DNA of 64,000 bases from Phycisphaerae bacterium (GTDB lineage: Bacteria > Planctomycetota > Phycisphaerae > UBA1845 > Fen-1342), in assembly GCA_963675745.2 (NCBI GenBank), contig CAXXWX010000016.1, positions 223,261-287,260 on the forward strand. Direction: 5' to 3'. The position numbers were made by a program, and so were the translations under genes. Shown here one piece after another: positions 11,442-25,995 of this stretch (positions are counted from its first letter, which is position 1; each line of letters begins with the position of its first letter). The notes beneath the pieces were generated by a model. It did no database searches. It saw only the letters and a list, made by a program, of their open reading frames with translations, and had not been told where the DNA came from.

Positions 11442-13337
11442 CTATGCCTCTGACTTGGCGCTTGGAATATCCTCCTGCGGAATCACCATCTTCACCTGGA
11501 CCACGCCGCTGACCGTGGCGGTCTCGATGCCCAGGCCGGAGCGGTGGAAGATCTTGAGCATGCCGCTGTTTTCCGGCAGCACGCTGGCGCGCAGGTGGTA
11601 GATGCCCTGGCTCTTTGCGATCCGCACCAGCTCCTCGTGGAAGTAGGTGCCGAGCCCCTTGCGCTGCCAGTCGTCGCGCACCACGAAGGCGACCTCGGCG
11701 TCCAGCTTGGCGGCGTCGGTCAGGTAGCGCCCAACTCCCACGATCTCCTCGCTCTCGGCGTCACCGACCACGCCCACGAGTGCCATCTCCGTGTCATAGT
11801 CGATGTTGCAGAAGACCTGGAGCTTGTTGTGAGGCATGGACTTAAGTTGCGAATGGTAGCGCAGGTAGACCGTCTGCTCGCTGAAGGAGTAGAACATGCT
11901 CTTGATGAGCGGCTCGTCGTCGGGGCGGATGGGCCTGACCCTGACTTGGGTTCCATCCAGCAGCTTGGCGGTCGATTCGTATTGGGCGGGGTACTGCGCC
12001 CGCGGGGGCGGGAGAATCTGGTTGGCGTAGACGATGCGGCGGCGCTTGGCGGCGTGCAGCAGCTCCGAGCGGAAGTCCGGGTGGGCGATGTTGATGAGCG
12101 ACATCGCCCGCTCGCGCATGGTCTTGCCGTGCAGGTAGGCCACGCCGTACTCAGTGACTACATAGTGAATGTCGCCGCGGGTAGTGATCACGCCCGCCCC
12201 CTCCTGGATGGTGGCGACGATCCGCGAGCGAATGCCGTCGGGAGTATCCGCGGTGCTGGGCACGGCAATGATGGGTTTGCCGTTCTTCGCCAGGGCGGCG
12301 CCGCGGATGAAATCGGCATGACCACCCAGACCGCTGTAAAGCTGCTGGCCCAGCGAATCCGCCACCACCTGCCCGGTCAGATCAACCTCGAGGGCGGAGT
12401 TGATGGCGATCATGTTGTTGTGCTGGGCGATAGTGAAGGGGTGATTGGTGTACTCCGAGGGGTGCATCTCAATCTGGGGGTTGCCGTCGAGGAACTCGAA
12501 GAGAGCGGTAGTACCAGCGGCGAAGCTGCCCACGATCTTGCCGGGGTGCAGGGTCTTGCGCTTGCCGGTGATCACGCCCGCTTGCGCCAGCTTGAGCACG
12601 CCGTCGGAGAACATCTCGGTATGGATACCGAGGTCGCGCTTGTCGGTAAGCAGCGAGAGCACCGCGTCCGGGATGCGCCCGATCCCCAACTGGAGGGTGG
12701 CGCCGTCGGGCACCAGGCGGGCGATGTTTGCGGCGATCTTGCGGGTGACCTCGTCCGGCTCGCCCCCCGCGGGCCATTCCAACAGGGGTTCGTCGTGCTC
12801 GATCAGGTACTTGATCCGATCCACGTGCAGGAAGGTGTCGCCCAGAGTGCGCGGCATGTTTCGATTAACCTGCGCCACTACCACCTTGGCCGACTCGACC
12901 GCGGACTTGGTGATGTCCACCGAGACACCCAGGCTACAGTATCCCCGCTGATCGGGCGGGCTCACCATCACTAAGGCGACGTCGATCCCCAGCCGGCGAC
13001 TCTTGAACAACGCCGGAAGCTGCGAGAGAAACACTGGGGTGTAATCCGCCCGGGCTTCGTTCACCGCTGCGCGCACGCTGTTGCCGATGAAGAAGGCGTT
13101 AGCGCGAAAGTTGGGGGCGAAGCGCGGGTCCGCGTAAGGCGCCACACCCAACGTCAGCACGTGCAGCACCTCCGTATCGGCCAGTTCGCCCCCCACCGAC
13201 GCCAGCGCTCGCACGAGTTCCTGCGGCTCCCCGCAGGCCGAGCCCACAAACACGCGCTGTCCCGGTCTGATAGTCCTGATCGCGTCGGTCGCGGGTACGA
13301 CCTTGTCCGCCCAGGTGTTGCGCCAATCGTGAGTCAT
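11442..13337 (-). CDS. Acetyl-CoA hydrolase / 4-hydroxybutyrate CoA-transferase family protein fused to a C-terminal GNAT domain (copy 2)
   Basis: LQLGIG.IP, GIHTEMFSDG, EVDLTGQV, SGLGGHADF, YVVTEYG; GNAT part EVAFVVRDDWQRKGLG. Confidence 0.92.
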   Translation of the reverse strand: MTHDWRNTWADKVVPATDAIRTIRPGQRVFVGSACGEPQELVRALASVGGELADTEVLHVLTLGVAPYADPRFAPNFRANAFFIGNSVRAAVNEARADYTPVFLSQLPALFKSRRLGIDVALVMVSPPDQRGYCSLGVSVDITKSAVESAKVVVAQVNRNMPRTLGDTFLHVDRIKYLIEHDEPLLEWPAGGEPDEVTRKIAANIARLVPDGATLQLGIGRIPDAVLSLLTDKRDLGIHTEMFSDGVLKLAQAGVITGKRKTLHPGKIVGSFAAGTTALFEFLDGNPQIEMHPSEYTNHPFTIAQHNNMIAINSALEVDLTGQVVADSLGQQLYSGLGGHADFIRGAALAKNGKPIIAVPSTADTPDGIRSRIVATIQEGAGVITTRGDIHYVVTEYGVAYLHGKTMRERAMSLINIAHPDFRSELLHAAKRRRIVYANQILPPPRAQYPAQYESTAKLLDGTQVRVRPIRPDDEPLIKSMFYSFSEQTVYLRYHSQLKSMPHNKLQVFCNIDYDTEMALVGVVGDAESEEIVGVGRYLTDAAKLDAEVAFVVRDDWQRKGLGTYFHEELVRIAKSQGIYHLRASVLPENSGMLKIFHRSGLGIETATVSGVVQVKMVIPQEDIPSAKSEA

Positions 13338-13343
13338 GGTTCG

Positions 13344-15503
13344 CTACTCCGCGAGAATGATCCGCGCATCCGCCACCATCGCGCCTTCACCGCGCGGGTA
13401 GACGATCAGCGGGTTAATGTCGAGTTCCTTAATCTGCGGCAGGTCGGTCACCAACTGACTGAGCCGCATGAGACAATCACCGATAGCTTCAACGTCAGAG
13501 GGCGCCTCGCCGCGCACGCCTTCGAGCAGGCGATAGGAGCGAATGTCCTTGACCATCTCCTCGGCCATGCCCGCGCGAATCGGGGCGAGCCGGAACGAGA
13601 CGTCGCGCAACGCCTCGGTGTAAATGCCGCCCAGGCCGAACATCAGCAGCGGACCGAAACGCGGATCGCGCGTCATGCCCAGGATGATCTCTTTGCCAGG
13701 GTCCAGCATCTTCTGCACCAGCACGCCCCAGATTTCGATGTCCGCTCCCAGCTTGTCCCGTACGGAAGCAACCATCTCGTCATGCGCCTGCCGCACCGCG
13801 TCCGGATCGCGCAGGTTCAACCGCACGCCGCCCACGTCGGTTTTGTGCAGGATCTTGGGGCCGGAGATTTTCATCACCACCGGATACCCGATCTCCTCCG
13901 CCGCCGCGGCCGCCTCCTGGGCACTGGTCGCCAGCTTGAAGGGCACCAGCGGGAAGCCGTAATGCTGCAAGGCCTCCAGCGCCCGCACTTCGACAAGCTG
14001 CGTCCGCCCCTCCTTCAGCTCGGAGGCAAAGAGCTGCTCGACCTGCGCCTGCTCCACGTCGTAGCGGTGATAGTCCCGCAGCGGAGCCCGACCCCAATCC
14101 GCGAAGCGCGCCTTGGCCGCCAGCGCCCGCATGGCGTCTTCGGGGAAGGTATAAGTGGGTACCCCGTGCTTCTTGAGCACCTTCACCGCATCCGCGATAT
14201 CAGCCAAGCCCATCAGACACGCCACCACCGGTTTGCCGCAGTAACTACGAGCTTCACCGATCACGTTGGCGATCTCGGTCATATCGGTCATCATCTGCGG
14301 CGTCACGATCACCACGATCTGATCGACGCCTTCATCGGCGGTGACGGCGTCCAAGGCGGCGCGATAGCGGTCGCTCTTGGCGTCCCCGATCACGTCGACC
14401 GGGTTCTTGAGGGCGGCCGTGGGCGGCAGTTGAAACTTCAGCGACTTCACCGTGTATTCCTGGAAGCCGCTCAACGCGAGCCCGTTGCGGATACAGGCGT
14501 CGGTGGCCATGATCCCCGGTCCGCCGGCGTTGGTCACCACGGCGGTGCGCCGCCCACGCGGTAAGGTCGCGTCGGCGAAGATCTCGGCGTACTCGAAGAG
14601 TTCCTCCACCGATTCCACCCTGATCACCCCCGCCTGATTCATGAGGGCTTCGTACACCTCGTCCGAACCGGCGAGGGAGCCGGTGTGCGAAGCGGCCGCA
14701 GCCGCTCCCTGTGCCGTGCGCCCGGTCTTGATCGCGAGGATCGGCTTGGGATGCTTGCCGTGGGTGATCCGGTTGGCGGCCTCGATGAACGCCTGGCCAG
14801 CCGAAAGCTCCTCAATGTACATCAGGATTACGTTAGTGTTAGGATCATTCGCGAGCGAGTGCAGCAGGTCCAGCTCGCTGATGTCGCACTTGTTGCCGAA
14901 GCTGATGAAGCGCGAAAAGCCCATGCCGATGCCCTTGGCGTAATCGAGCAAGGCGGTGCAGAGGGCGCCGCTCTGGGAGATCAGCCCCAGGCTGCCGGCG
15001 GCCGGCATCTCGCGGGCGAAGGTGGCGTTAAGCTGCACGTGGGCAGCCGTGTTGATCACGCCCAGGCAGTTGGGCCCGAGAATAGAGAGCCCCTTCTCCC
15101 GAGCCAAGGCGCTCAGACGGCGTTCACGCTCAGCGCCCTCCCCGCCGATCTCCTTGAACCCGGCGGTTATCACGACGAAGTGCTTGGTGCCGTGCTCGGC
15201 CGCCTCGCAGATCACGTCCTCCACCGCGGTGGCGGGAATCACGAGCACCGCCAGATCCACCTCATCGTCAACCTGCGAAACCCGCTTCGTGCAACGGCAG
15301 CCCAAGATGCTCTTGGCCTTGGGGTTTATGGGATAGACCACCCCCGTAAAGCCGCCGTAGATGAGGTTGCGCGTGATGGCATGCCCGACGGAACCGGGCG
15401 TGCGCGAGGCCCCCACCACCGCCACCGAACGAGGGGCAAACAAGGGCTCCAGATCCCGAATAGCCGCGGGAGCCTCGGCCGTGGAACTGACTACGCTGGA
15501 CAT
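13344..15503 (-). CDS. ADP-forming acetate/acyl-CoA ligase, alpha-beta fusion
   Basis: CoA-binding VAVVGAS, GPNCLG, phospho-His motif SHTGSLAG, NPVD, ATP-grasp HKTDVGGV, ELDINP. Confidence 0.92.
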   Translation of the reverse strand: MSSVVSSTAEAPAAIRDLEPLFAPRSVAVVGASRTPGSVGHAITRNLIYGGFTGVVYPINPKAKSILGCRCTKRVSQVDDEVDLAVLVIPATAVEDVICEAAEHGTKHFVVITAGFKEIGGEGAERERRLSALAREKGLSILGPNCLGVINTAAHVQLNATFAREMPAAGSLGLISQSGALCTALLDYAKGIGMGFSRFISFGNKCDISELDLLHSLANDPNTNVILMYIEELSAGQAFIEAANRITHGKHPKPILAIKTGRTAQGAAAAASHTGSLAGSDEVYEALMNQAGVIRVESVEELFEYAEIFADATLPRGRRTAVVTNAGGPGIMATDACIRNGLALSGFQEYTVKSLKFQLPPTAALKNPVDVIGDAKSDRYRAALDAVTADEGVDQIVVIVTPQMMTDMTEIANVIGEARSYCGKPVVACLMGLADIADAVKVLKKHGVPTYTFPEDAMRALAAKARFADWGRAPLRDYHRYDVEQAQVEQLFASELKEGRTQLVEVRALEALQHYGFPLVPFKLATSAQEAAAAAEEIGYPVVMKISGPKILHKTDVGGVRLNLRDPDAVRQAHDEMVASVRDKLGADIEIWGVLVQKMLDPGKEIILGMTRDPRFGPLLMFGLGGIYTEALRDVSFRLAPIRAGMAEEMVKDIRSYRLLEGVRGEAPSDVEAIGDCLMRLSQLVTDLPQIKELDINPLIVYPRGEGAMVADARIILAE

Positions 15504-15629
15504 CGAAACTCACCTCTTAAGGCTGATTGCCGGTCGGCGCGGGCGCTAATTCCCACCCGCCGGGACCGGTCGACTATGTAGTTGATAGGGCCGCAAGCCG
15601 CGTCGCTGACGCAGCCACTCTTACCCTCG

Positions 15630-17507
15630 TCACTGGTTCTTCTTCGTGAAGGGGATGCGCAAAATGTAGGCGCCATCCTCCAGTTCGCTCTCGACCGGGT
15701 AACCCGTCTTATGGAAAACGCGCAACATGCCCAGGTTGTCCGCCAGCACGTCCGCGGTGAAGCCGGCGATACCGTGGGCCCGGGCGGATTCGATCAAAAC
15801 CTCAATCATGTGCGAGCCCATTCCCTTCCGCTGCAAGTCGTCCCGCACCAGAAACGCCGCGTCGGCGAAGTTGGTGCGCGGGTCCTTGCGGTAATGCGCG
15901 ATGCCGACGATCTGAGCTTCCTCCGTGTTGTCCGTGAGCACCACCAGGGCCATATCCGATTCATAGTCCACCCGCAGAAACTCCTGCATATTCTGGTGCG
16001 GCATGGACTTCAAGATTCTGAAGAAGCGGAAGTGGATGGACTCGGAGGAGAGCTTGTAGAACATGTCGCGCAACATCGGCTCGTCCGTGAGCTTGAGCGG
16101 GCGGAGGAAGTAGCGCGACTTATCCTTCAGCTCAACCCAACGCTCCAGTTCCTCCGGGTAGACCGGGGTGCGCATCGGCAGCTCGATCTGATCGGCATAG
16201 ACCAGGTTCCGCCCCTTCGCCTCCGACAGCAGCCAGGGTCTGAACTTCGGGTGGGCGATCTGGATCAACGCCAATGCCCGCTCGCGAATGTTCTTACCAT
16301 GCAGATAGGCCACCCCGTACTCGGTGACGATGTAGTGCACGTCGCCCCGGCTGGTCACCACCCCCGCCCCCTGCTTGAGATGCGGCACGATCCGGGAGAA
16401 CACCTCGCCCTCGGCCGTGGAGGGTAGCGCAATGATCGGCTTGCCTCCGCGCGAGCGCGAGGCCCCCCGGGTGAAATCAACCTGCCCCCCGATCCCGCTG
16501 TAAAACATCGTGCCCAGCGAATCGGCGCAGACCTGCCCGGTGAGGTCCACCTCGATCGCCGAGTTGATCGAGATCATCTTGTCGTTCTGGGCGATGATGA
16601 ACGGGTCGTTGGTGTACTCCGTGGGGTGAAACTCGATCATCGGGTTGTCGTCGATGAACTCGTAGAGCTTCTTCGACCCCATCACGAAGCTCGCCACGAT
16701 CTTGCCGGGATGCAGCGTCTTGGCGGAGTTGTTGATAACGCCTTGCTCGATCAAAGGAATCACGCCGTCGCTGAACATCTCGGTGTGAATCCCCAGGTTG
16801 CGAAAGCCGCCCAGGTAATGCAGCACCGCATCCGGAATCGAGCCGATGCCGAGCTGAAGCGTGGCCCCGTCCTCGATCAAACCGGCGATGTGCTTGCCGA
16901 TGTGCTCGGCGATCTCGTCCTCTTCACCCTGCGGTGCTTCGAGCACGGGGATGTCGCTCTCGACCAACACGTCGATGTCATCCACCCGGATAAAGCAGTC
17001 GCCCAGCACTCGCGGCAGTTGCTTGTTCACCTCCGCCACCACGATGTTGGCGGACTCAGCCGCAGCTTTGACGATGTCCGTCGAGACGCTGTAGCTGCAA
17101 TAACCATATTCGTCGGGTGGGCTGACCCCGATCAAGGCAACGTCGATCACCACCCGGCGCGAGCGGAGCAGGCGCGGAATCTCGGAAAGGAAGATGGGCG
17201 TATAGTCGGCCCGCCCCTGGGCGACGGCGTCGCGGACGTTGGGACCGATGAAGTAAGCGTTATGGCGAAAGCGACTGCCGAAGCGGGGCTCGGCGTAGGT
17301 CGCCACCCCCAGCGTGAGAATGTGCACGATCTCGGTGTCGCTCAGGTCGTCGCGGGCGGATAAGGCCGCCACCAGTGCCTGCGGTTCACCCGCCCCGGAG
17401 CCCACGAAGACCCGCTGGCCATGCTTGACGCAGGAGACCGCCTCCGCCGCGGAAACCAGCTTATCAGCATAACGCTCCTGCCACGCGGGGGATGACTTAT
17501 CAACCAT
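15630..17507 (-). CDS. Acetyl-CoA hydrolase / 4-hydroxybutyrate CoA-transferase family protein fused to a C-terminal GNAT domain (copy 1)
   Basis: Same motifs as 11442-13337: GIHTEMFSDG, SGIGGQVDF, AFLVRDDLQRKGMG. Confidence 0.92.
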   Translation of the reverse strand: MVDKSSPAWQERYADKLVSAAEAVSCVKHGQRVFVGSGAGEPQALVAALSARDDLSDTEIVHILTLGVATYAEPRFGSRFRHNAYFIGPNVRDAVAQGRADYTPIFLSEIPRLLRSRRVVIDVALIGVSPPDEYGYCSYSVSTDIVKAAAESANIVVAEVNKQLPRVLGDCFIRVDDIDVLVESDIPVLEAPQGEEDEIAEHIGKHIAGLIEDGATLQLGIGSIPDAVLHYLGGFRNLGIHTEMFSDGVIPLIEQGVINNSAKTLHPGKIVASFVMGSKKLYEFIDDNPMIEFHPTEYTNDPFIIAQNDKMISINSAIEVDLTGQVCADSLGTMFYSGIGGQVDFTRGASRSRGGKPIIALPSTAEGEVFSRIVPHLKQGAGVVTSRGDVHYIVTEYGVAYLHGKNIRERALALIQIAHPKFRPWLLSEAKGRNLVYADQIELPMRTPVYPEELERWVELKDKSRYFLRPLKLTDEPMLRDMFYKLSSESIHFRFFRILKSMPHQNMQEFLRVDYESDMALVVLTDNTEEAQIVGIAHYRKDPRTNFADAAFLVRDDLQRKGMGSHMIEVLIESARAHGIAGFTADVLADNLGMLRVFHKTGYPVESELEDGAYILRIPFTKKNQ

Positions 17508-17802: not shown

Positions 17803-18135
17803 TTATAGGGTGATTACCTTATCCGCGTCGCGTAGGGTGGCAAGAATCTCGTCCATGTTGCTCTGGCGATCGACGATGAGGCGCTCGCCCAGACCATAAT
17901 ACTCGATGCAGGTCCCGCACGGCAGCAACTCGACCCCGCGCTCCTGCAAGGCCAGCAGGTCAGGGCCTAGCACGGATTCCCGCGCCACCAAGTGTACGCC
18001 GGAGTTATACAGTACGACGGCCTCTAAACCAGGGAAAACCTGGAGTTTACGCAGACATGCTCCCAGAAGCTTCTCCCCGAGTTCACGCTCACCTTCCCCC
18101 ATCTGGGGCCGACAGAGCACCACGACAGTCTTCAT
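17803..18135 (-). CDS. DsrE/YedF-like sulfurtransferase family protein
   Basis: MGEGERELG..L, LYNSGV and CGTC.EYYG motifs. Confidence 0.8.
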   Translation of the reverse strand: MKTVVVLCRPQMGEGERELGEKLLGACLRKLQVFPGLEAVVLYNSGVHLVARESVLGPDLLALQERGVELLPCGTCIEYYGLGERLIVDRQSNMDEILATLRDADKVITL

Positions 18136-18175
18136 AGGCAATTCCCGGGGCTCAACTGCGGCTTATATACTGGAA

Positions 18176-18787
18176 TCAGATAGCCGGCTTGACCTTGAAC
18201 AAGGGCTGCCCGAAACGCACCTCCGCGGCGTCCTCCGCCAGCACCTCGACGATCTCGCCTCGCTCGGGCAGGTCCACCCCGCCGTAGGTGATCTGGTGGA
18301 AGCACTTCATGATCTCGACCAGTCCGAGGATGGTGCCGGAGCCGACCGGCGACCCCGCCTCCACGTAGGGCGGCGCGTCGGGTGAGGACCGGCGGTAGAA
18401 GATGCCGTCCGACGGGGCCGGGACTGTGATCAGATCACCCACTCCGGCTGATCCCTCGGTGGCGGCACCACCCTTCGCCCTTGTAGCCGCCCCACCACCA
18501 CCGTCCAGGGCACGTGGGTCCAGCCGGGCCATGACCTCACCGTAAGCCACCGGTGAATAGCTGTTCGGAATGAACACTTCCGTCACCCGACCGTGGATCT
18601 CGCGCGGCAGGCGCAGCACGTAGCGCTCGTTGAGAATCTTCATCGTGATCACGCGGTCGGACGGGTTGAGGAACAAACCCACCTTCGGCGCCCCGTCAGC
18701 CATGCCCACCACCGGTGAACTCACCAGCAGGGTATCAGGGTCAGCCTCATCCGGTCGCACGTTTGCTATCAAGGTCTTTTCCGGCAT
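18176..18787 (-). CDS. Biotin carboxyl carrier protein with an extra degenerate N-terminal biotinyl-like domain
   Basis: P..GIFYR..SPDAPPYV, VEIMKC biotinylation-type motif, V.FGQPLF. Confidence 0.85.
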   Translation of the reverse strand: MPEKTLIANVRPDEADPDTLLVSSPVVGMADGAPKVGLFLNPSDRVITMKILNERYVLRLPREIHGRVTEVFIPNSYSPVAYGEVMARLDPRALDGGGGAATRAKGGAATEGSAGVGDLITVPAPSDGIFYRRSSPDAPPYVEAGSPVGSGTILGLVEIMKCFHQITYGGVDLPERGEIVEVLAEDAAEVRFGQPLFKVKPAI

Positions 18788-18802
18788 CTATCTTCTCGCG
18801 GC

Positions 18803-19133
18803 GGGTGGCATGGCCAAGCGTAGCGCCGCCATGCAGGCGGGACAGCAAATGGCGAAACCACTCGTAGGGTGCACCTTGGTGCACCTGTATCCTGCGTATC
18901 TCTCACTCCTGCGCGGCACATGCAGGCGCCCGACTGCGTCGGGCTTGGGCATGCCACCCATACTCGCCAGCCACATGCTCACCCTACGGGCTGAGCATGG
19001 CACCCAAGCCCTCCCCCTCTACCCTTCATCCTTCGTCCTTCCCTTCCGTCCCCACCCTTGCTCCGCGAGGATGCGCCACCCACACTCGCGTATTGTCCGA
19101 AAACCCTCGGCCGCCACGGGGGGCGGCCGCTAC
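18803..19133. repeat. REP cluster inside the carboxylase operon
   Basis: REP-M 18803-18833, GTAG-REP 18864-18885, REP-K 18919-18959, further hairpins, GTAGCGGCCG-type REP 19108-19133. Confidence 0.88.
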
Positions 19134-19137
19134 ACTC

Positions 19138-20871
19138 CTACCCCGCGAAATCCGAGAGCACGTTCAAATCATGCATCGACCAGATGCGCGGGTTCTTCAC
19201 GCGCCGATAGCCGATGCTCTGGTAGGACATCTCCACCAGCGTCATCAGGTAATCGCGCAGCTCGTGCACCGGCACGATCTCATCCGTATCCATCTGCCGG
19301 GCGGCCTTGTAGGGATCCATGTCGGCCTCGATGCGATCCTCGACCGCCTTCATCCCCGCCTCGACCTTCGCCCGCTCCGCAGGATCCTGCGTGGTAATGT
19401 TGAAGTTGTCGTCCAGCTTGGTGCGATAGGCCCCGATCGCCAGCGTCCGCCCCTCCATCACCGCCAAGCGCGTAAGCGGGGTGGAGAACTGCACGATCGG
19501 CTCGTAGGGTAAACCCGTCTCCGCATAGTAGCCCGCCCCGGACGCCTTGCGCAACAGCACCGTGATCATGGGCACGGTGTTGGTCGAGTTGGTGTAGAGC
19601 AGGTTCGAGCCGTAGGCGAGTAGGCCGTGCTTCTCCGCCTCGATCCCGATGTCGAAGCCGGAGATGTCCTGCAACCAGATGATCGGGATACCATCCGAGT
19701 TGCAGGAGCGCGAGAACTGCGAAATCTTGGCGATGCCCTCGCGATAGAGCAACCCGCCCGCCCGGCTGCGATCCTTCAGCTCCGGATGGGGCGTAAGCTG
19801 CTGATTGTTCGCGATGATCCCGACGTACAAACCGTTGATCCGCGCGATCCCCGTGACCATCTCCTCGCCGGTGTGCGGGAACAACTCCCAGAAGAGCGAG
19901 CTATCCACCAGGCGGGCGATGATCTGGCGAATGTCGTAGACCACGCGATGATCCACGGGGAGCAAGCCGTTGATCTCCTGCGGTGAGAAGCGCGGCTCGG
20001 CCGGGTCGAATCCGTGACGATAGTAAGCAACGGCGCTGGCAGGCAGCTTCGCTACTTCCTGTCGGATGCGCTTAAGCATGGTCTGATCGTCGGGCACGCG
20101 CTCGTCGGCGCAGTTGGACAGGTGCACGTGCACGTTCGGCCCACCGATGGTGAGCGACGTAATCTTCTGGGATTTGGCGCCTTTGATGAGCGCCGCCCCG
20201 GCGATTACCATGTAGGCCTGCTCCGTCATGAAAAGCTTGTCGGAGATGATGGGCATGTAGCCGCCGCCCGCGATGCAGTCGCCCAGCACGCCGGCGATCT
20301 GCGGCACGCCGCTCGCGGAGAGCAGCGCGTTCATCTTGAAGATATACCCCGCCCCCACCCGCCCGGGGAAGGTCTTGGACTGCTCCGGCAGGTTCAGACC
20401 GGAACAATCGACCAGGTAAATGACGGGTATGCGCAGACGCAGGCCCACTTCCTGGGCACGTTCGATCTTCTCCGGCGTCAAGGGCCACCAGGAGCCGGAC
20501 GCCACCGTGTTGTCATTCGCGATCACGACCGTAAGTCGGCCCTGAATCCGCACGAACGCGGTTACCACCCCCGCAGCCGGAGAGGTGCGCGGCGGCTTGC
20601 CGAAGGTCAGACCATAGTTGACAAAAGTGTTAATAGGAAAGATGGTCGTGCCCTCGTCCTTGAGCGCCTCCAACCGCTCCCAGGTCGTCATCTTCCCCTT
20701 GGCGTGGACGCGCTCCACATACTCAGGCCCCCACCCGGCCCGCACTTCCTCCCGGCGCTCGCGCACGACGGCGTTAAGCTCTTCCATGCGCGCAAGATTC
20801 TTAGTATAGGTCTGCTCGTCGACCAACTCTTCAACGGGCGCACCAACTGGATGAAGGATAACCTTTGCCAT
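19138..20871 (-). CDS. Acyl-CoA carboxyltransferase (methylcrotonyl-CoA carboxylase beta / glutaconyl-CoA decarboxylase alpha family)
   Basis: [39 protein letters not shown]. Confidence 0.9.
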
Positions 20872-20881
20872 GAAGTAGAAC

Positions 20882-22231
20882 CTATCCCAATAATCGCGCG
20901 ATGAAGCCCGTGTCGTACTTTCCTTCAGCAAAGTCAGGGGATTTCATGATCTTGACATGCGCGGGAATCGTGGTTTTCACGCCCCCCACTTTGAAGGCTT
21001 CGAGTGCTTTGACCATGCCGTTACGTGCGGCCTCACGATCTGGCCCCCAGACAATCAGCTTCGCAATCAGCGAGTCGTAATAGACCGGAATGCGATAGCC
21101 CGGGCGCACGTGCGAATCCACCCGCACCTTTACACCCGGCACTTCCCGCGGCGGCACGAACTCGGTCACCACGCCCGGACAGGGTTTGAAATCCTCGAAG
21201 GGATCTTCCGCGTTGATCCGGCACTCGATCGAGTGCCCGTGCATCTCTATGTCTTCCTGATTGAACGAAAGCGTCTCGTTGGCAGCCACGTGGAGCTGCT
21301 CAGTCACCAGGTCGCGGCCGGTCACTTGCTCGGTTACCGGATGCTCGACCTGGAGCCGGGCGTTTACCTCCATGAAATAGAGCTGCCCGTCCTGATCGCG
21401 GAAGAACTCGACCGTGCCGGCGTTGCGATAGCCGATCAGGCGCAAGGCCTTGCGCAGCTTCTCACCCAGATCGCGCCGCAACTCAGGCGTCATCACCGGC
21501 GACGGCGATTCTTCTACGAGCTTCTGATGCCGGCGCTGGGCGGAGCACTCGCGCTCCCCCAGATAGACGGCATTACCGAAGGCGTCGGCCATCACCTGAA
21601 ACTCGATGTGCCGCCCGTCGATGATGTACTTTTCGAGATAGAGCCCGGCGTTGTTGAACGCCTTCTCCGCCTCCATCGAAGCTTCCTGGAACATCGGCGC
21701 GAACTGGTCTGCGGAGTCCACGCGGCGCATCCCGCGCCCACCGCCGCCGGCAGTGGCCTTGAGCAGGACGGGGAAGCCCATCTCCTTGGCGAGCTTGAGC
21801 CCTTCCTCCAGATTCGGCAACGTGCCACGTGAGCCGGGGATCACGGGCAACCCGGCCGAGCGCATGGTCTCCCGGGCGGTGGCCTTGTCCCCCATCGACT
21901 GGATCGCACCCGCCGGCGGGCCGATGAACGTCATCTTCGCCTGCTCACACAACTCCGCGAAGAGCGCGTTTTCCGCCAGAAAACCGTAACCCGGGTGAAT
22001 GGCGCAACAGTCCGTCTGCTCGGCTGCCTGGATGATCGCGGTCATGTTCAGGTAGCTCTGAGCGCTCTTGGGCGGGCCGATGCAGACACGCACGTCGGCC
22101 TCCTCCAGGTGCGGAGACTCGGCATCCGCCTCGGAGTAGACCGCCACCGACTCGACGCCCAGCTCCTTGCAGGCGCGAATCACTCGCAGAGCGATTTCAC
22201 CACGGTTGGCAATCAGGATGCGTTTGAACAT
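20882..22231 (-). CDS. accC: Biotin carboxylase
   Basis: [50 protein letters not shown]. Confidence 0.95.
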
Positions 22232-22248
22232 GAAAGCTCCGTGCTACA

Positions 22249-22395
22249 GTGTGCCACTGCTCTTGAGCAGTGCTCTCAGATTGCGGGTGGCATGGCCAAG
22301 CGCCGCCATGCAGTAGGGTGGGCACCGCCCACCACGTATGTCGTTATCAATTACGTCGCGTTACCGGTCCCGGCGGTGGGCAGTGCCCACCCTAC
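22249..22395. repeat. REP cluster overlapping the hydratase stop codon
   Basis: Palindrome 22249-22273, shortened REP-M 22285-22310, inverted GTAGGGTGGGCA pair 22313-22333 / 22375-22395. Confidence 0.85.
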
Positions 22396-23180
22396 TTCTC
22401 TTCCCCCCACCTCGGCTTCCGTCTTTCGAGAAACGCGTTCATGCCATCCTGGCCTTCGGCGCTCATGCGGAGCTTCGCGATAACCTCAGCCGTGTAGGGA
22501 CCGTTGTCCACGAGTGAACGTTCCGCCACCTCGCGAATAAGCTCCTTGGAAACCGCCAACGCCTCCGGCCCGCCGGAGAGAATCAACGCCACCTTCTGCT
22601 CGACCTCCGCATCAAGCTGCTCCGCCGGCACAGCCGAGTTGACCAACCCCAGCTCAACCGCCCGCTCCGCGCTGAAACGCTCGCCCGTGAGGAAGTACTC
22701 CCGCAGGTTCTTCTCGCCCATGCGTTTGAGCAGGTAAGGTGAAATCGCGGCCGGGGTCAGGCCGAGCTTGGTCTCACTGAAGGCGAAGTAGGCGTCCTGC
22801 GAAGCGATCGCAATATCGCAGACCGCCACCACGCCCGTGCCACCGCCGATGGCCGGGCCGTTGATCCGCCCGATCACCGGCTGCGGATGGGTGTAGACCT
22901 CGCGCAGCATCCGCGCCAGGTTGAGCGAGTCCTCGTAGTTTTGCTCGAGGGTGTAATTGACGACTCGCTTCATCCAGTTGAGGTCGGCCCCGGCGCAGAA
23001 ACAGGCACCCTCGCCGGTGAGCACGACCACGCGCACCTGGGAATCAGTGCGCAGAGAGGCAAAGACCTCACGGAGGTCTTCGAGCATCTCATCGTTGAAG
23101 GCGTTGCGCACGTCGGGACGGCTGAGGGTCACCCGCGCAATAGGTCCGTCACGGGTGAGGCGTACGGTGCCGTAGCTCAT
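22392..23180 (-). CDS. Crotonase, methylglutaconyl-CoA hydratase (LiuC)-like
   Basis: FCAGADLNWM, GGGTGVVAVCD, SETKLGLTPAAISPY. Confidence 0.85.
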   Translation of the reverse strand: MSYGTVRLTRDGPIARVTLSRPDVRNAFNDEMLEDLREVFASLRTDSQVRVVVLTGEGACFCAGADLNWMKRVVNYTLEQNYEDSLNLARMLREVYTHPQPVIGRINGPAIGGGTGVVAVCDIAIASQDAYFAFSETKLGLTPAAISPYLLKRMGEKNLREYFLTGERFSAERAVELGLVNSAVPAEQLDAEVEQKVALILSGGPEALAVSKELIREVAERSLVDNGPYTAEVIAKLRMSAEGQDGMNAFLERRKPRWGEEK

Positions 23181-23239
23181 ACGCAACTCCTTAGGAAGCG
23201 CACCACGAGGCCCCTGCGAACGGAGAACGGCGCAGCATC

Positions 23240-23356
23240 CGTCCCCCACCCTTGCTGCGCAAGAATGGGGCACCCATCACGGGGCAGCCGGAATACTCGT
23301 GAAGCGCATCCCCCACAAGGGATACGCTTCACGAGGTACGCTTCACGCTTCACGCC
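23240..23356. repeat. REP-like hairpin plus ACGCTTC heptamer run
   Basis: CCCACCCTTGCTGCGCAAGAATGGGGCACCC resembles the hairpin near 19050-19081; ACGCTTC units at 23324-23351. Confidence 0.65.
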
Positions 23357-23372
23357 GCCGCGCCAGCGGCGG

Positions 23373-23768
23373 CTACTGCCGCACCGGGACGGCCTTGTGC
23401 CCGTAGTGAATGATGCCCGCGTCGCCTTCGGTATAACTCCGGCGAAACTCCAACTTCACCGGCATCCCGATCTTCAGCTCGTCGAACGAAACGTCGGCAA
23501 TCTGCACGGTAAGCCGGGCGCCGTCGTCCATGTCGACTAAACCGACAGCGAAGGGAGCCTCACCGGAAAACTCATCCGAGGGCGTCCGAATCACGGTATA
23601 GGTCACGACTTTGCCGGTGCGTTTCATCTCGAACCGGGTAAAGGCACGCGCCTGGCACTTGTTGCACACCAGGCGGGGCGGATAGAAGACCTTGCCGCAC
23701 TTGTCACACTTGGCGGCTTCCAGTCGATACGTCTGCGGATATTCACGCCATGCTCTCGAGGGTGGCAT
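23373..23768 (-). CDS. DUF35-type Zn-ribbon / OB-fold protein
   Basis: CDKC..YPPR..CNKC, GKVVTYTVI, OB-fold C-terminus; starts 1 nt after the thiolase stop. Confidence 0.92.
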   Translation of the reverse strand: MPPSRAWREYPQTYRLEAAKCDKCGKVFYPPRLVCNKCQARAFTRFEMKRTGKVVTYTVIRTPSDEFSGEAPFAVGLVDMDDGARLTVQIADVSFDELKIGMPVKLEFRRSYTEGDAGIIHYGHKAVPVRQ

Positions 23769-23769
23769 C

Positions 23770-24924
23770 TTACATCGCCTCCAGAATATGAACGACGGAA
23801 CTTCCGCCGCTACCGCCCATGTTCTGCGCCAGCCCCACGCGCGCGTTCTTAAGCTGCCGCTTACCCGCCTCGCCCCGAAGCTGCTCGGTAATCTCCACGA
23901 TCTGGGCAATCCCGGTCGCACCGACCGGATGCCCCTTGGATTTGAGCCCACCACTGGCATTGATGGGCATCTTGCCGTCGAGCGCGGTGACCCCCGCCTC
24001 CGCGGCCGGACCACCCTTGCCCCGTTCGATCAAACCCAGACTCTCCGAGACGATGATCTCCGCGATGGTGAAGCAGTCGTGCACCTCGGCGAAGTCAATG
24101 TCCTTGGGGTCCTTGCCCGCCATCTTGTAGGCCTGCTCCGCGGAACAGCTCACCGCCTTGAGCGCGGTAAGGTCCTCGCGATCCTTGAGAGCAATGGAAT
24201 CCGTCGCATGACCCGAGCCGATGATCTTCACGCCCGGCTTCTTGTACTTCTTAACCCAGTCGGCCGGGATCACGATCGCCGCGGCCGCCCCGTCGGTGAT
24301 CGGCGAACAATCCAGGATGTTCAGCGGATCAGCCACCTTGACCGAGTCGATCACACCCTCGACCGTGATCTCCATCGGGAACTGGGCCCGCGGGTTCATG
24401 CTGCCGTTGTGATGGTTCTTGACGGCCACGTGGGCGAGCTGCTTACGGGTGGTGCCGTACTTGGCCATGTGGGCGACTGCCAGCATGGCGTACAGCCCGG
24501 GGAAAGTGATACCACTGGTCCCTTCCCACTCCATGTCCGCCGCGGTGGCAAGGGCATAAGTCGCATCCCCCCCGCCGATCTCGGTCATCTTCTCCACCCC
24601 GCCGGCCAGCACCACGTCGTGCACCCCACTGGCCACGTCCCGAAACGCCATCCGCAGCGCCAAGCCTCCGGAGGCACAGGCGGACTCCACCCGCGTCGCG
24701 GGAATCGGAGCCTGCCCCAGGTAATCCGCCAAAACCGAACCCAAATGCTCCTGGGCGGCAAAGAGCCCGGGAGTCATGCTACCTACATACATGGCGTCCA
24801 GCTTGTCCACCCCGGCATCGTCCATGGCGAGCAAGGCGGACTCGACGAAGATGTCGCGGGTCGAGCGATTCCACAGCTCGCCCCACTTCTGCATGCCGAC
24901 GCCGATTACGGCCACTTCTCTCAT
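23770..24924 (-). CDS. Archaeal-type acetyl-CoA acetyltransferase (thiolase)
   Basis: [30 protein letters not shown]. Confidence 0.93.
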
Positions 24925-24936
24925 CTTTCGTATCTC

Positions 24937-25995
24937 CTACTTCTCCGCCAGGCGGATCTTGCGCCGCAGCTTGGCGTACTCGCCGTACTCGAGGAAGCTA
25001 ATGTTCTCGTCCAGCATCCAACGCGTCTTGGGCGCCAGGTCACGGGCCTTGAGCACCCGCTCCTGCACCGTAAAGATGAAGGCATCACTGCCCGCCCCCG
25101 AGCCGTAGGAGCACATCATGATCTTGTCGCCCGGCTTCGCCACATCCAACACGGCCGTCATCCCGAGCGGCGAGGCGCCTGAGTAGGTGTTGCCCAAAGT
25201 GAGTACCAGACGCCCGACCTCGATCTGCTCAAAGCTGAAGCCGAGCATCTTGGCGACGCGCTTGGGGAACTTGCCGTTGGGCTGGTGGAAGATAGCGTAC
25301 TTGAAATCCTTGGGCTTCATGCCGGATTTCTTGAGGATGCCCTCGACCGCGCCTACCACCGTGCGGAAGTAGGCCGGCTCCCCGGTGAAACGCCCGCCGT
25401 GCGACGGGTAGAACTGGTGCTCGCGCCGCCAGAAATCCGGGGTGTCCGTCATGAAGGAGTAGGTCTCGTCGATGGTGGCGATCATGCGGTCCTCGTCGGC
25501 CCCCATGATGAAGGCCGCCGCACCGGCCGCCGCCGAGTACTCGAGGGCGTCGCCGGGCGCACCCTGCGAGGTATCGCCGCCGATGCCCATCCCGTACTTG
25601 ATAAGCCCCGCCTTGACCAGGCCATAGGCGACGAACATGCCCTCCGAGCCCGCCTTGCAGGCGAACTCGAAGTCCGCGCAATGGCAGTCAGGGGTGGCAC
25701 CGATCGCCTCGGCCACGGTAACGCCGGAGGGCTTCACCGCGTAGGGGTGCGACTCGCTCCCGACGTAGATCGCCCCGATGTCCTTGGGGTCGATCCCCGC
25801 CCGCGCCACGGCGTTGCGGGCCGCCTCCACGGAGAGAGTGATCGTGTCCTCGTCCAGCCCCGGGACTGATTTCTGGATCAGCTCCAGCCCCTTCTTGTAG
25901 CTTGGCGCGTCCGCCCCCCAGACCTTGGCGATCTCCTCAACCTTGATTCGCCGCCGGGGGAGGTGGGCACCATAGCCAATAATCCCAACTGCCAT
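24937..25995 (-). CDS. Archaeal-type hydroxymethylglutaryl-CoA synthase
   Basis: GSESHPYAVKP, EFACKAG (catalytic Cys), DTPDFWRR, HQPNGKFP, GNTYSG, SYGSGAGSD. Confidence 0.93.
   Translation of the reverse strand: MAVGIIGYGAHLPRRRIKVEEIAKVWGADAPSYKKGLELIQKSVPGLDEDTITLSVEAARNAVARAGIDPKDIGAIYVGSESHPYAVKPSGVTVAEAIGATPDCHCADFEFACKAGSEGMFVAYGLVKAGLIKYGMGIGGDTSQGAPGDALEYSAAAGAAAFIMGADEDRMIATIDETYSFMTDTPDFWRREHQFYPSHGGRFTGEPAYFRTVVGAVEGILKKSGMKPKDFKYAIFHQPNGKFPKRVAKMLGFSFEQIEVGRLVLTLGNTYSGASPLGMTAVLDVAKPGDKIMMCSYGSGAGSDAFIFTVQERVLKARDLAPKTRWMLDENISFLEYGEYAKLRRKIRLAEK

Follow-up and report, generated by a model that had tools for sequence, protein, structure and literature searches.

A bacterial gene block that joins an archaeal-type HMG-CoA synthase trio to a biotin-dependent carboxylase: a candidate for leucine breakdown without HMG-CoA lyase

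Background

To our knowledge, HMG-CoA synthase (HMGCS) is treated as a one-way enzyme and HMG-CoA lyase as the sole exit of leucine catabolism. The lyase route releases acetoacetate, which needs re-activation. Desulfococcus multivorans has an anaerobic isovalerate cluster of the liu pathway (PMC5109826), and liu operons also occur in genomes of the same order as the bacterium studied here. Thiolase, HMGCS and a DUF35 protein form a complex in Methanothermococcus thermolithotrophicus (6ESQ/6ET9), and the same three-gene scaffold occurs in bacteria as PhlACB, MucABC and PfACAT/HMGS-DUF35 (PMC12960953). That source defines the E-C-H-N tetrad of HMGCS, describes its loss in the characterised repurposed bacterial trios, and counts 1,030 bacterial clusters of the scaffold, 1,001 of them without secondary-metabolism neighbours. 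The Myxococcus xanthus route (MvaS, LiuC, AibAB, AibC) leads from HMG-CoA via a hydratase to C5 branched acyl-CoAs; as described in PMC5004256, it uses the AibAB decarboxylase and the AibC reductase, with neither a biotin carboxylase nor an archaeal trio. Citrate synthase, likewise a condensing enzyme that hydrolyses a thioester, was considered irreversible, yet the roTCA cycle uses it in reverse in vivo against +38.8 kJ/mol, with a saving of ATP (PMC13147460).

Results and discussion

Gene block and conservation

The window, the whole analysed stretch of 64,000 nucleotides, belongs to an uncultured Phycisphaerae bacterium with an assembly completeness of 91 %. The eight co-oriented reading frames named in the earlier note were all found on the minus strand. 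Seven form the block: HMGCS, thiolase, DUF35, a LiuC-like hydratase, biotin carboxylase (BC), carboxyltransferase (CT) and biotin carboxyl carrier protein (BCCP). The eighth is a YedF/DsrE-like gene (17803-18135; TIGR03527 87 bits, below the cut-off of 110). From HMGCS through YedF the intergenic gaps measure 12, 1, 192, 160, 10, 350 and 40 bp, thus the trio is spaced by 12 bp (HMGCS-thiolase) and 1 bp (thiolase-DUF35). A promoter scan of the block gave 3 sites versus 2.8 in shuffles, hence no excess. No published description of the seven-gene block was found in the literature.

Eighty loci related via the CT and drawn from several phyla were surveyed for synteny. The full trio adjoins the CT in 28 of them, again across several phyla, and this recurrence argues against a chance gene order. 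Six further loci, mostly at contig ends, hold a partial trio. A crotonase adjoins the trio in 26 of the 28 full loci, and an acyl-CoA dehydrogenase is present in 15. Isobutyryl-CoA/methylmalonyl-CoA mutase genes adjoin the CT in 5/80 loci, one being a confirmed IcmF. The earlier proposal of a conserved acetyl-CoA/methylcrotonyl-CoA module is thus supported as a conserved linkage, with a function predicted from sequence. Two of its details did not hold: the YedF-like gene, taken as an operon member, occurred in 0/80 related loci, and the ADP-forming ligase, regarded as specifically linked, in 5/80, on the opposite strand and with about 39 % identity. Neither this ligase nor the CoA-transferases (0/80) are conserved neighbours.

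The HMGCS/thiolase/DUF35 trio

The HMGCS (24937-25995, minus strand, 352 amino acids) scored 523 bits with TIGR00748 (cut-off 353) and 528 with PRK04262 (cut-off 244). Its tetrad is intact (E81-C113-H237-N269) and invariant in all related copies covering each site (28 or 29/29). The SCP2-type acetoacetyl-CoA thiolase (23770-24924, minus strand, 384 amino acids; PRK06064 528 bits, cut-off 420) has intact CxS, HDCF and GHP motifs (C83, H282, G331), kept in 31-32 of 32 related copies. The DUF35 scaffold protein (23373-23768, minus strand, 131 amino acids; PF01796 + PF12172) combines a Zn ribbon and an OB fold; its four cysteines at 21/24/35/38 are kept in 33/34 related copies, the remaining one not being covered there.

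The Methanothermococcus complex is the best PDB match for all three subunits: 463 bits for HMGCS to 6ESQ chain I (189 bits to a PhlA-type protein), 363 for thiolase to chain A and 102 for DUF35 to chain E. The tetrad, CxS, HDxF, GHx and the four Zn cysteines of that complex are retained. Judged by family models and motifs, the trio belongs to the archaeal-type thiolase/HMGCS/DUF35 family. The retained HDxF motif speaks against an acyltransferase of the PhlACB/MucABC type, as does the retained HMGS tetrad, which the characterised repurposed trios of PMC12960953 lost. Unlike the archaeal complex, the trio resides in a bacterium with MEP genes and without HMG-CoA reductase, and its linked genes encode a hydratase and a biotin carboxylase instead of mevalonate enzymes (except in genome G018).

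Hydratase and biotin enzyme

The crotonase (22392-23180, minus strand, 262 amino acids) is LiuC-like and predicted to be a 3-methylglutaconyl-CoA hydratase. It falls below every NCBIfam cut-off, including PRK07468 (275 bits) and PRK05674 (244 bits), and is 45-48 % identical to the hydratases of lyase-ending liu operons in three same-order genomes. The BC (20882-22231, minus strand, 449 amino acids) is of the stand-alone AccC type (TIGR00514 650 bits, cut-off 626); another contig (C10) encodes a further AccC, one for fatty-acid synthesis, and the two are 50 % identical. The BCCP (18176-18787, minus strand, 203 amino acids; PF00364) carries an N-terminal extension of unknown fold. Its biotin-site Met-Lys is present in 66 of 67 related copies, the remaining one not being covered at the site.

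The CT (19138-20871, minus strand, 577 amino acids; PF01039) had been called glutaconyl-CoA-decarboxylase-like, and the phylogeny agreed. PDB scores tie at 251 bits for GcdA and MCC-beta, with 31-33 % identity to both. In a quick tree of 24 rows, where long-branch pull is possible, the CT groups with GcdA (SH-aLRT 100), and one clade with MCC-beta was rejected under the same limits (AU p=1.4e-6). This test speaks against the CT as an orthologue of MCC-beta (LiuB). A loop insertion before GGxLY, QDxxGxD and RKAS are shared with GcdA but not with MCC-beta. Both the tree and these motifs make GcdA (PDB 1PIX, 3GF3) the nearest characterised relative, and on this basis the CT represents a separate uncharacterised clade sister to it. 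Unlike GcdA, the CT, only 31 % identical, is paired with an ATP-grasp BC, and the genome holds no beta subunit. The absence of this membrane subunit (PF03977, 0 matches in the host genome) speaks against a Na+-translocating glutaconyl-CoA decarboxylase. We predict that the CT acts on methylcrotonyl-/methylglutaconyl-CoA. The large CTs of the lyase-bearing genome G033 comprise only the block-type clade and one PCC-like protein, those of G043 and G047 the block-type clade, one PCC-like and one AtuC-like protein, which fits a block-type clade doing the MCC job.

Distribution of lyase, reductase and MEP genes

The earlier note had seen no HMG-CoA reductase or lyase in the window; this absence extends to the whole host assembly. 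No PF00682 match was found, three lyase queries reached a best E of 0.08, and reductase, mevalonate kinases or any other mevalonate gene were absent from the 91 % complete assembly. The MEP genes Dxs, Dxr and IspG are present; IspH was not found in this assembly and is present in 9/9 related Planctomycetota carriers.

Carriers are genomes with this archaeal-type HMGCS, 31 in a set of 50, the other 19 being non-carriers. A canonical lyase, defined by us as NF004283 with at least 379 bits, occurred in 0/31 carriers versus 6/19 non-carriers, counts that overstate independence because the genomes are related. Trio and canonical lyase alternate across genomes. In four inspected same-order genomes that lack the trio, the operons are of the CT-hydratase-BC-BCCP-lyase type, with lyases of 391-398 bits; the two carriers of the same-order set have no PF00682 domain. 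Lyase absence is also seen outside the carriers: 4/20 same-order non-carriers gave no PF00682 match, and 11 of the 19 non-carriers gave no strong lyase match. A lyase-family gene above the curated cut-off (264-279 bits) exists in 5/31 carriers, and one carrier has fragments. Three of these five genes were inspected and lie between a CaiB-type CoA-transferase gene and a gene of the isocitrate/isopropylmalate dehydrogenase family. Reductase is present in 6/31 carriers, where the trio presumably runs forwards; 20/31 have neither reductase nor any lyase-family gene. IspG or IspH was found in 26/31.

Amino-acid dependence and dehydrogenases

LeuA was found in 0/31 carriers, the IlvD family in 2/31 and HisD in 1/31; therefore the carriers depend on outside amino acids. 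The host genome has no LeuA, LeuB, LeuD, IlvI or IlvD. It has a member of the branched-chain aminotransferase family and 2-oxoacid oxidoreductases of the ferredoxin type; the candidate for a branched-chain 2-oxoacid oxidoreductase scores below the NCBIfam cut-offs. Haem-copper and bd oxidases are also encoded, so that the gain of a single thioester may be of little weight.

In 20/80 loci the block contains or adjoins an acyl-CoA dehydrogenase, and all 20 of these copies read IGEGT. They share the Gly of an annotated isovaleryl-CoA dehydrogenase (IGAGT), which we take to make room for the 3-methyl group of the substrate; four farther copies read IYEGT. In the host genome, for which the earlier note had suggested a search for isovaleryl-CoA dehydrogenase, all four dehydrogenases are of the YEG type and none is of the IGEGT type. 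The IGEGT type occurs in 1/9 related Planctomycetota carriers and in 0/4 lyase-operon relatives.

Proposed route

With a probability of about 0.55, the block provides the lower part of a leucine/isovalerate catabolism that dispenses with HMG-CoA lyase, the trio operating in reverse, a direction that we infer. Peptide leucine would be converted to isovaleryl-CoA and 3-methylcrotonyl-CoA by enzymes encoded outside the block. BC, BCCP and the GcdA-sister CT would carboxylate 3-methylcrotonyl-CoA to 3-methylglutaconyl-CoA at the expense of ATP, and the crotonase would hydrate this to HMG-CoA. In the proposed new step, the reversed trio would cleave HMG-CoA with CoA to acetoacetyl-CoA and acetyl-CoA. 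The channelled acetoacetyl-CoA would be thiolysed immediately, giving 3 acetyl-CoA as end product (net HMG-CoA + 2 CoA -> 3 acetyl-CoA), and one thioester more would be retained than on the lyase route. Like the liu pathway, the block has hydratase, BC, CT and BCCP, and in 15/28 full loci the acyl-CoA dehydrogenase; it differs in the trio replacing the lyase, a CT that is no MCC-beta orthologue and a stand-alone AccC-type BC with separate BCCP.

The reversed trio is supported by the distribution of the canonical lyase, by the lyase-ending operons of the four inspected same-order non-carriers, and by the host genome, in which HMG-CoA has no other exit and no AtoDA-type acetoacetate CoA-transferase was found. 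The Gly in 20/20 block-linked dehydrogenases argues for an isovaleryl-type substrate, the ATP-dependent BC and the missing Na+-pump beta subunit for carboxylation, and the amino-acid dependence and the mutase genes near the CT for a catabolic lifestyle. Published free energies are +4.7 kJ/mol for 3 acetyl-CoA -> HMG-CoA (bioRxiv 10.1101/2020.11.20.391870) and, for the single steps, +26.1 (thiolase) and -16.9 +/- 15.8 kJ/mol (HMGCS; PMC7264872 supplement). These estimates place the reversed reaction near equilibrium. In a concentration sketch, the reverse becomes uphill in most computed cases at acetyl-CoA/CoA = 5. The roTCA citrate synthase is the proposed parallel, by analogy only, the trio being of a different enzyme family and pathway.

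Several observations stand against the reversed trio: the CT is nearer to the decarboxylase GcdA than to MCC-beta, some carriers have lyase-family genes above cut-off (5/31) or reductase (6/31), and the host genome has no IGEGT-type dehydrogenase and only a below-cut-off oxidoreductase candidate. Assemblies are incomplete, some non-carriers also miss the lyase, and the HMGCS energy has an error of 16 kJ/mol.

Alternative readings

Of the three functions offered in the earlier note, isovalerate breakdown by a reversed trio is the best supported, apart from its ligase link. The iso-branched primers proposed there would arise by biosynthesis: 3 acetyl-CoA would yield HMG-CoA and, by dehydration and biotin-dependent decarboxylation, 3-methylcrotonyl-CoA and then isovaleryl-CoA for iso-fatty acids or branched products, with the IGEGT dehydrogenase as possible reductase. 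Such a route would parallel LiuC/AibAB/AibC of Myxococcus, but with biotin chemistry. In its favour, Myxococcus, a leucine auxotroph, uses the Aib route, propionyl-CoA carboxylase is reversed in some anaerobic animals, and the CT has a decarboxylase as its sister. Moreover, the Aib route is established (PMC5004256), and HMG-CoA synthesis is the sole direction demonstrated for the trio (PMC12960953). However, the BC uses ATP and no Na+ pump is present, thus decarboxylation would either drive ADP phosphorylation or run uncoupled. The CT clade is also found, with no trio, in genomes that have a canonical lyase but lack a recognisable MCC-beta, and among the recurring neighbours in the 80 loci (clusters judged by eye, a minority scanned against a library) no fatty-acid or polyketide gene is prominent. 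We consider primer synthesis unlikely. Extension of this direction to leucine, by reductive carboxylation and transamination of isovaleryl-CoA in place of the missing LeuABCD, would suit the lack of LeuA in 31/31 carriers, the gaps in the host genome, its oxidoreductases and its aminotransferase. Yet LeuA is also missing in 16/19 non-carriers, histidine synthesis is lost too (HisD in 1/31), which indicates a general amino-acid dependence, and G021, a probable carrier with a cut contig, keeps LeuA and IlvD; this reading is extremely improbable.

The third function was a funnel of two routes into HMG-CoA. Acetyl-CoA and leucine halves would both make HMG-CoA for a reductase unassembled here, or the block would be a relic from mevalonate-using bacteria. 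Directly upstream of its trio, G018 encodes diphosphomevalonate decarboxylase, a kinase, a fusion of reductase and mevalonate kinase, and IPP isomerase; all five carriers without IspG and IspH have reductase, and the host assembly is 91 % complete and without IspH. But 25/31 carriers have no reductase, all of them with IspG or IspH; the chromosome-length records CP070772 and CP070744 (G009, G032) gave no reductase match, and the host assembly offers no sink, being devoid of mevalonate genes. A relic would not keep catalytic residues invariant across carriers. The funnel fits only the six carriers with reductase, such as G018, and is quite improbable. Different substrates, with the CT acting on glutaconyl-/crotonyl-CoA or another enoyl-CoA and the trio unrelated in purpose, would agree with the GcdA-type motifs, the hydratase below all cut-offs and the 20/80 loci in which, despite long flanks, the CT has no trio, hydratase or dehydrogenase nearby. 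The hydratase's identity to LiuC of true liu operons, the isovaleryl-type Gly of the linked dehydrogenases and the full HMGCS tetrad make this very improbable.

Implications

In either direction of running, the CT clade would be a new type of biotin enzyme. For leucine breakdown through the reversed trio, we see an even chance that uncultured bacteria of several phyla, dependent on external amino acids, form a guild that converts leucine to three acetyl-CoA, with the channelled trio reversed in vivo and fed by an uncharacterised ATP-dependent carboxylase of the GcdA line. If true, the trio would join citrate synthase as a second condensing enzyme that textbooks call irreversible and that is reversed for energy saving. 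For each leucine or isovalerate, one extra thioester (up to one ATP) would be gained, and this would matter near the thermodynamic limit. Some of the bacterial HMGS/ACAT/DUF35 clusters without assignment, roughly 1,000 by the count of PMC12960953, would receive a function, and annotations that name such organisms mevalonate users or unable to complete leucine breakdown would need correction.

Gene families of the block

The eight minus-strand open reading frames described in the earlier note were borne out at ~17803..25995, and domain and profile scans assigned them to archaeal-type HMG-CoA synthase (HMGCS), SCP2-type thiolase, DUF35, crotonase (the LiuC-like hydratase), AccC-type biotin carboxylase (BC), carboxyltransferase (CT), BCCP and a YedF-like protein. 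The Methanothermococcus complex 6ESQ was the best PDB match for HMGCS, thiolase and DUF35 (the trio); comparison to the archaeal complex rests on PDB matches and on parts of the papers citing it. DUF35-thiolase pairs occur in other pathways, according to the consulted part of bioRxiv 10.1101/2024.07.05.601840. The HMGS E-C-H-N tetrad and the thiolase motifs CxS, HDxF and GHx, as defined in section 10 of PMC12960953, were kept here and in every related copy covering them. Because these motifs are intact, a PhlACB-type acyltransferase was excluded as identity of the trio. The hydratase was 45-48 % identical to hydratases of lyase-ending operons in genomes of the same order that lack the archaeal-type HMGCS (non-carriers).

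An internal duplication of BCCP was rejected (BLAST E 0.55). Codon bias was uninformative as a sign of high expression: the block genes spread over percentiles 19 to 100, and ribosomal-type bias was weak genome-wide. A promoter and terminator scan of the block gave no more than chance level. Long intergenic gaps (window 18790-19137, 22235-22390 and 23180-23372) contained GC-rich palindromic REP-like repeats, common to the three gaps and to many other genome sites; two of the gaps gave 50 and 27 BLAST pieces. In three Phycisphaerae loci (L014, L015, L025) a small open reading frame of ~130 aa was inserted between BC and CT.

Against the PDB, the CT scored 251 bits for GcdA and 251 for MCC-beta, with 31-34 % identity to both groups. 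Quick trees and FastTree placed its clade with GcdA (SH-aLRT 100, FastTree 1.0; 60- and 24-row trees). P0152 was assigned to GcdA by 1133 bits to 3GF3. A joint clade with MCC-beta was rejected (AU p=1.4e-6; three long-branch rows omitted from the tested set). The GcdA-like motifs given in the earlier note were correct. In three lyase-bearing genomes (G033, G043, G047) this CT clade was the sole candidate for the MCC role besides PCC-like copies and copies that we take to be AtuC-like from their gene order. Genome G041 additionally carried an incomplete MCC-like copy. The CT of G034 lay ~14 kb from a lyase-hydratase-dehydrogenase cluster.

Conservation and spread

Among the best 80 of 159 loci from the CT scan, the full trio adjoined the CT in 28, so the linkage is kept beyond this genome. 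The trio was partial in six, KSB1 loci among them; 20 loci had at least 6 kb of upstream sequence yet no trio, and 26 were too short for judgement. The 28 full-trio loci included the hydratase in 26 cases and an acyl-CoA dehydrogenase in 15. Membership of the YedF-like gene was not borne out (0/80 loci), CoA-transferases were never conserved neighbours (0/80), and the proposed link to the ADP-forming ligase was not supported, this gene occurring in only 5/80 loci and on the opposite strand. From these neighbour counts, the conserved unit is seven genes, or eight counting the dehydrogenase. In the window the ligase lies between two acetyl-CoA hydrolase/transferase-GNAT fusion genes (11442-17507), a set that is not a conserved neighbour of the operon; the fusions are 55 % identical mutually, with a third copy on contig C5.

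Record titles of carriers, i.e. genomes with the archaeal-type HMGCS, named Phycisphaerae/Planctomycetota, Eisenbacteria, Acidobacteriota, Aminicenantes, Deltaproteobacteria and others. The CTs closest to this one (87-90 % identity) stood in records likewise titled Phycisphaerae or Planctomycetota. Within the host class the archaeal HMGCS was rare: 3/201 genomes, this one counted, and 0/7 other family members. No cultured organism with the complete block turned up among the best 80 of 159 loci or in two lists of 120 homologues; Plesiocystis pacifica possessed BC and CT without the trio. Microcompartment-shell-like genes, read by eye, followed the block in genome G018 (L140:17871-19999).

Lyase, reductase and biosynthetic genes across genomes

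Fifty genomes of unstated completeness were chosen from the 80, 31 with the trio fully or partly by the CT and 19 without. Archaeal HMGCS exceeded its cut-off in 31/50; this set replaces two cut contigs by two genomes with the trio elsewhere. A canonical HMG-CoA lyase (at least 379 bits) was present in 0/31 carriers versus 6/19 non-carriers, while lyase-family proteins of 264-279 bits occurred in five carriers and in pieces in one further. Three carriers (L099-L101) combined a divergent protein of this family (276-279 bits) with a CaiB-type CoA-transferase and an isocitrate/isopropylmalate dehydrogenase-family gene, perhaps a citramalate-type pathway. HMG-CoA reductase was found in 6/31 carriers versus 14/19 non-carriers, and 20/31 carriers had neither reductase nor lyase-family gene. 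IspG or IspH was detected in 26/31 carriers; all five carriers without both possessed a reductase, and in G018 a mevalonate cluster lay immediately upstream of the trio. A bypass of IspH from methylcrotonyl-CoA to prenol was dropped because IspH was found in 25/31 carriers. LeuA was present in 0/31 carriers versus 3/19 non-carriers, the IlvD family in two carriers, IlvD in 4/19 non-carriers, and HisD in one carrier.

Five Planctomycetota (G039, G040, G045, G042, G044; L193-L197) had this CT clade, a stand-alone reductase and MEP genes, with no detectable HMG-CoA synthase and no strong lyase match; three of the five carried a Gly-type dehydrogenase motif ~3 kb from ispH. Their reductases were rejected as a clue to direction because mevalonate genes were absent nearby.

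In the set of 22 same-order genomes, PF00682, the domain covering lyase and LeuA, matched in 16 and in neither of the two carriers (G003, G004). In four inspected non-carriers the operon ran CT-hydratase-BC-BCCP-lyase, the lyase scoring 391-398 bits; four others lacked both a lyase-family gene and a large CT.

Gene content of the source genome

The lack of HMG-CoA reductase and lyase, noted earlier for the window, holds for the whole assembly (5.2 Mb, 28 contigs, 91 % complete, 6 % contaminated): no reductase was found, and PF00682, mevalonate genes and three lyase queries gave no match. The Na+-pump beta subunit and AtoDA were likewise not found in the assembly. The suggested check for MEP genes recovered Dxs, Dxr and IspG; IspH was not found in this 91 % complete assembly; its presence in the nine related Planctomycetota carriers makes a gap in the assembly the probable reason. 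LeuA, LeuB, LeuD, IlvI, IlvD, the His pathway and ProB had no match to E. coli queries in the assembly; with such queries Trp, aromatic, Arg and Thr genes, PFOR, Rnf and haem-copper and bd oxidases were found. A ketol-acid reductoisomerase above cut-off persists without detected acetolactate synthase or IlvD (L129:6706-7743, contig C7).

The genome also encodes a B12 mutase, EtfAB, a butyryl-CoA operon and an IOR-ligase fusion, a 1024-aa protein that joins an indolepyruvate oxidoreductase beta subunit to an ADP-forming acyl-CoA ligase (L010:5208-10013, contig C6). A POR/VOR-type 2-oxoacid oxidoreductase (L125:6537-10945, contig C26) starts with a 742-aa gene bearing an NAD(P)-binding glutamate-synthase-like module. 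The sole strong E1 match lay within a 1005-aa frame, which would be a 2-oxoglutarate dehydrogenase.

A second, degenerate HMGCS-like/thiolase-like/DUF35/crotonase cluster was located on contig C3 (~241,700-245,100, minus strand; L001:9725-13089), its proteins sharing 28-43 % identity with those of the window. The tetrad is missing from the HMGCS-like protein; the thiolase-like one has no CxS cysteine and shows HDVY. As a hidden lyase this cluster was rejected: it was not found in five related carriers and lacks the YDHF/YDCY aldolase motifs given in the consulted part of PMC12329534.

The linked acyl-CoA dehydrogenase read IGEGT in 20/20 loci having one (best 80 of 159); four more distant copies read IYEGT. 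The glycine matches that of the annotated Sinorhizobium isovaleryl-CoA dehydrogenase and presumably makes room for the 3-methyl group. Dehydrogenases of the source genome were of YEG types only. By pattern search the Gly type occurred in 1/9 related carriers and 0/4 lyase-operon genomes; the lack of a Gly-type enzyme does not tell the readings apart because relatives and lyase-operon genomes mostly lack it too.

Direction of the block

Since MEP serves isoprenoids and neither reductase nor lyase is present, HMG-CoA made in one half of the block would be used only in the other, and the block would act as a linear bridge linking acetyl-CoA with 3-methylcrotonyl-CoA. We favour a catabolic function (probability roughly 0.55), leucine breakdown with the trio reversed, because the trio occupies the lyase position of relatives, the BC that partners the CT uses ATP, and carriers rely on external amino acids. 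Known anaerobic isovalerate degradation employs a lyase (PMC5109826, in part), whereas in the source genome none was found and the trio stands in the block. The opposite direction, isovaleryl-CoA synthesis after the Myxococcus route (PMC5004256, in part), would be served by the same bridge and appears less likely.

In the consulted parts of the sources, eQuilibrator values put 3 acetyl-CoA to HMG-CoA at +4.7 kJ/mol (bioRxiv 10.1101/2020.11.20.391870), and the two steps separately at +26.1 and -16.9 +/- 15.8 kJ/mol (PMC7264872). With the published central values, the reverse reaction was downhill at an acetyl-CoA/CoA ratio of 0.2, mixed at 1 and mostly uphill at 5; taking the upper bound of the error also made it mostly uphill. 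Reversed citrate synthase is a precedent (PMC13147460, in part).

In literature searches, with most subscription journals and bioRxiv supplements outside their coverage, no description of the block linkage or of a reversed HMG-CoA synthase was found, and a term search of the accessible text on Caldithrix abyssi (PMC5317091) gave nothing on the block. PMC12960953, in the part consulted, counts 1,030 bacterial trio clusters, 1,001 without assigned function. Judged from sequence, the block is real and conserved, and it is probably a variant of leucine catabolism in which the trio would perform a proposed reversed step.
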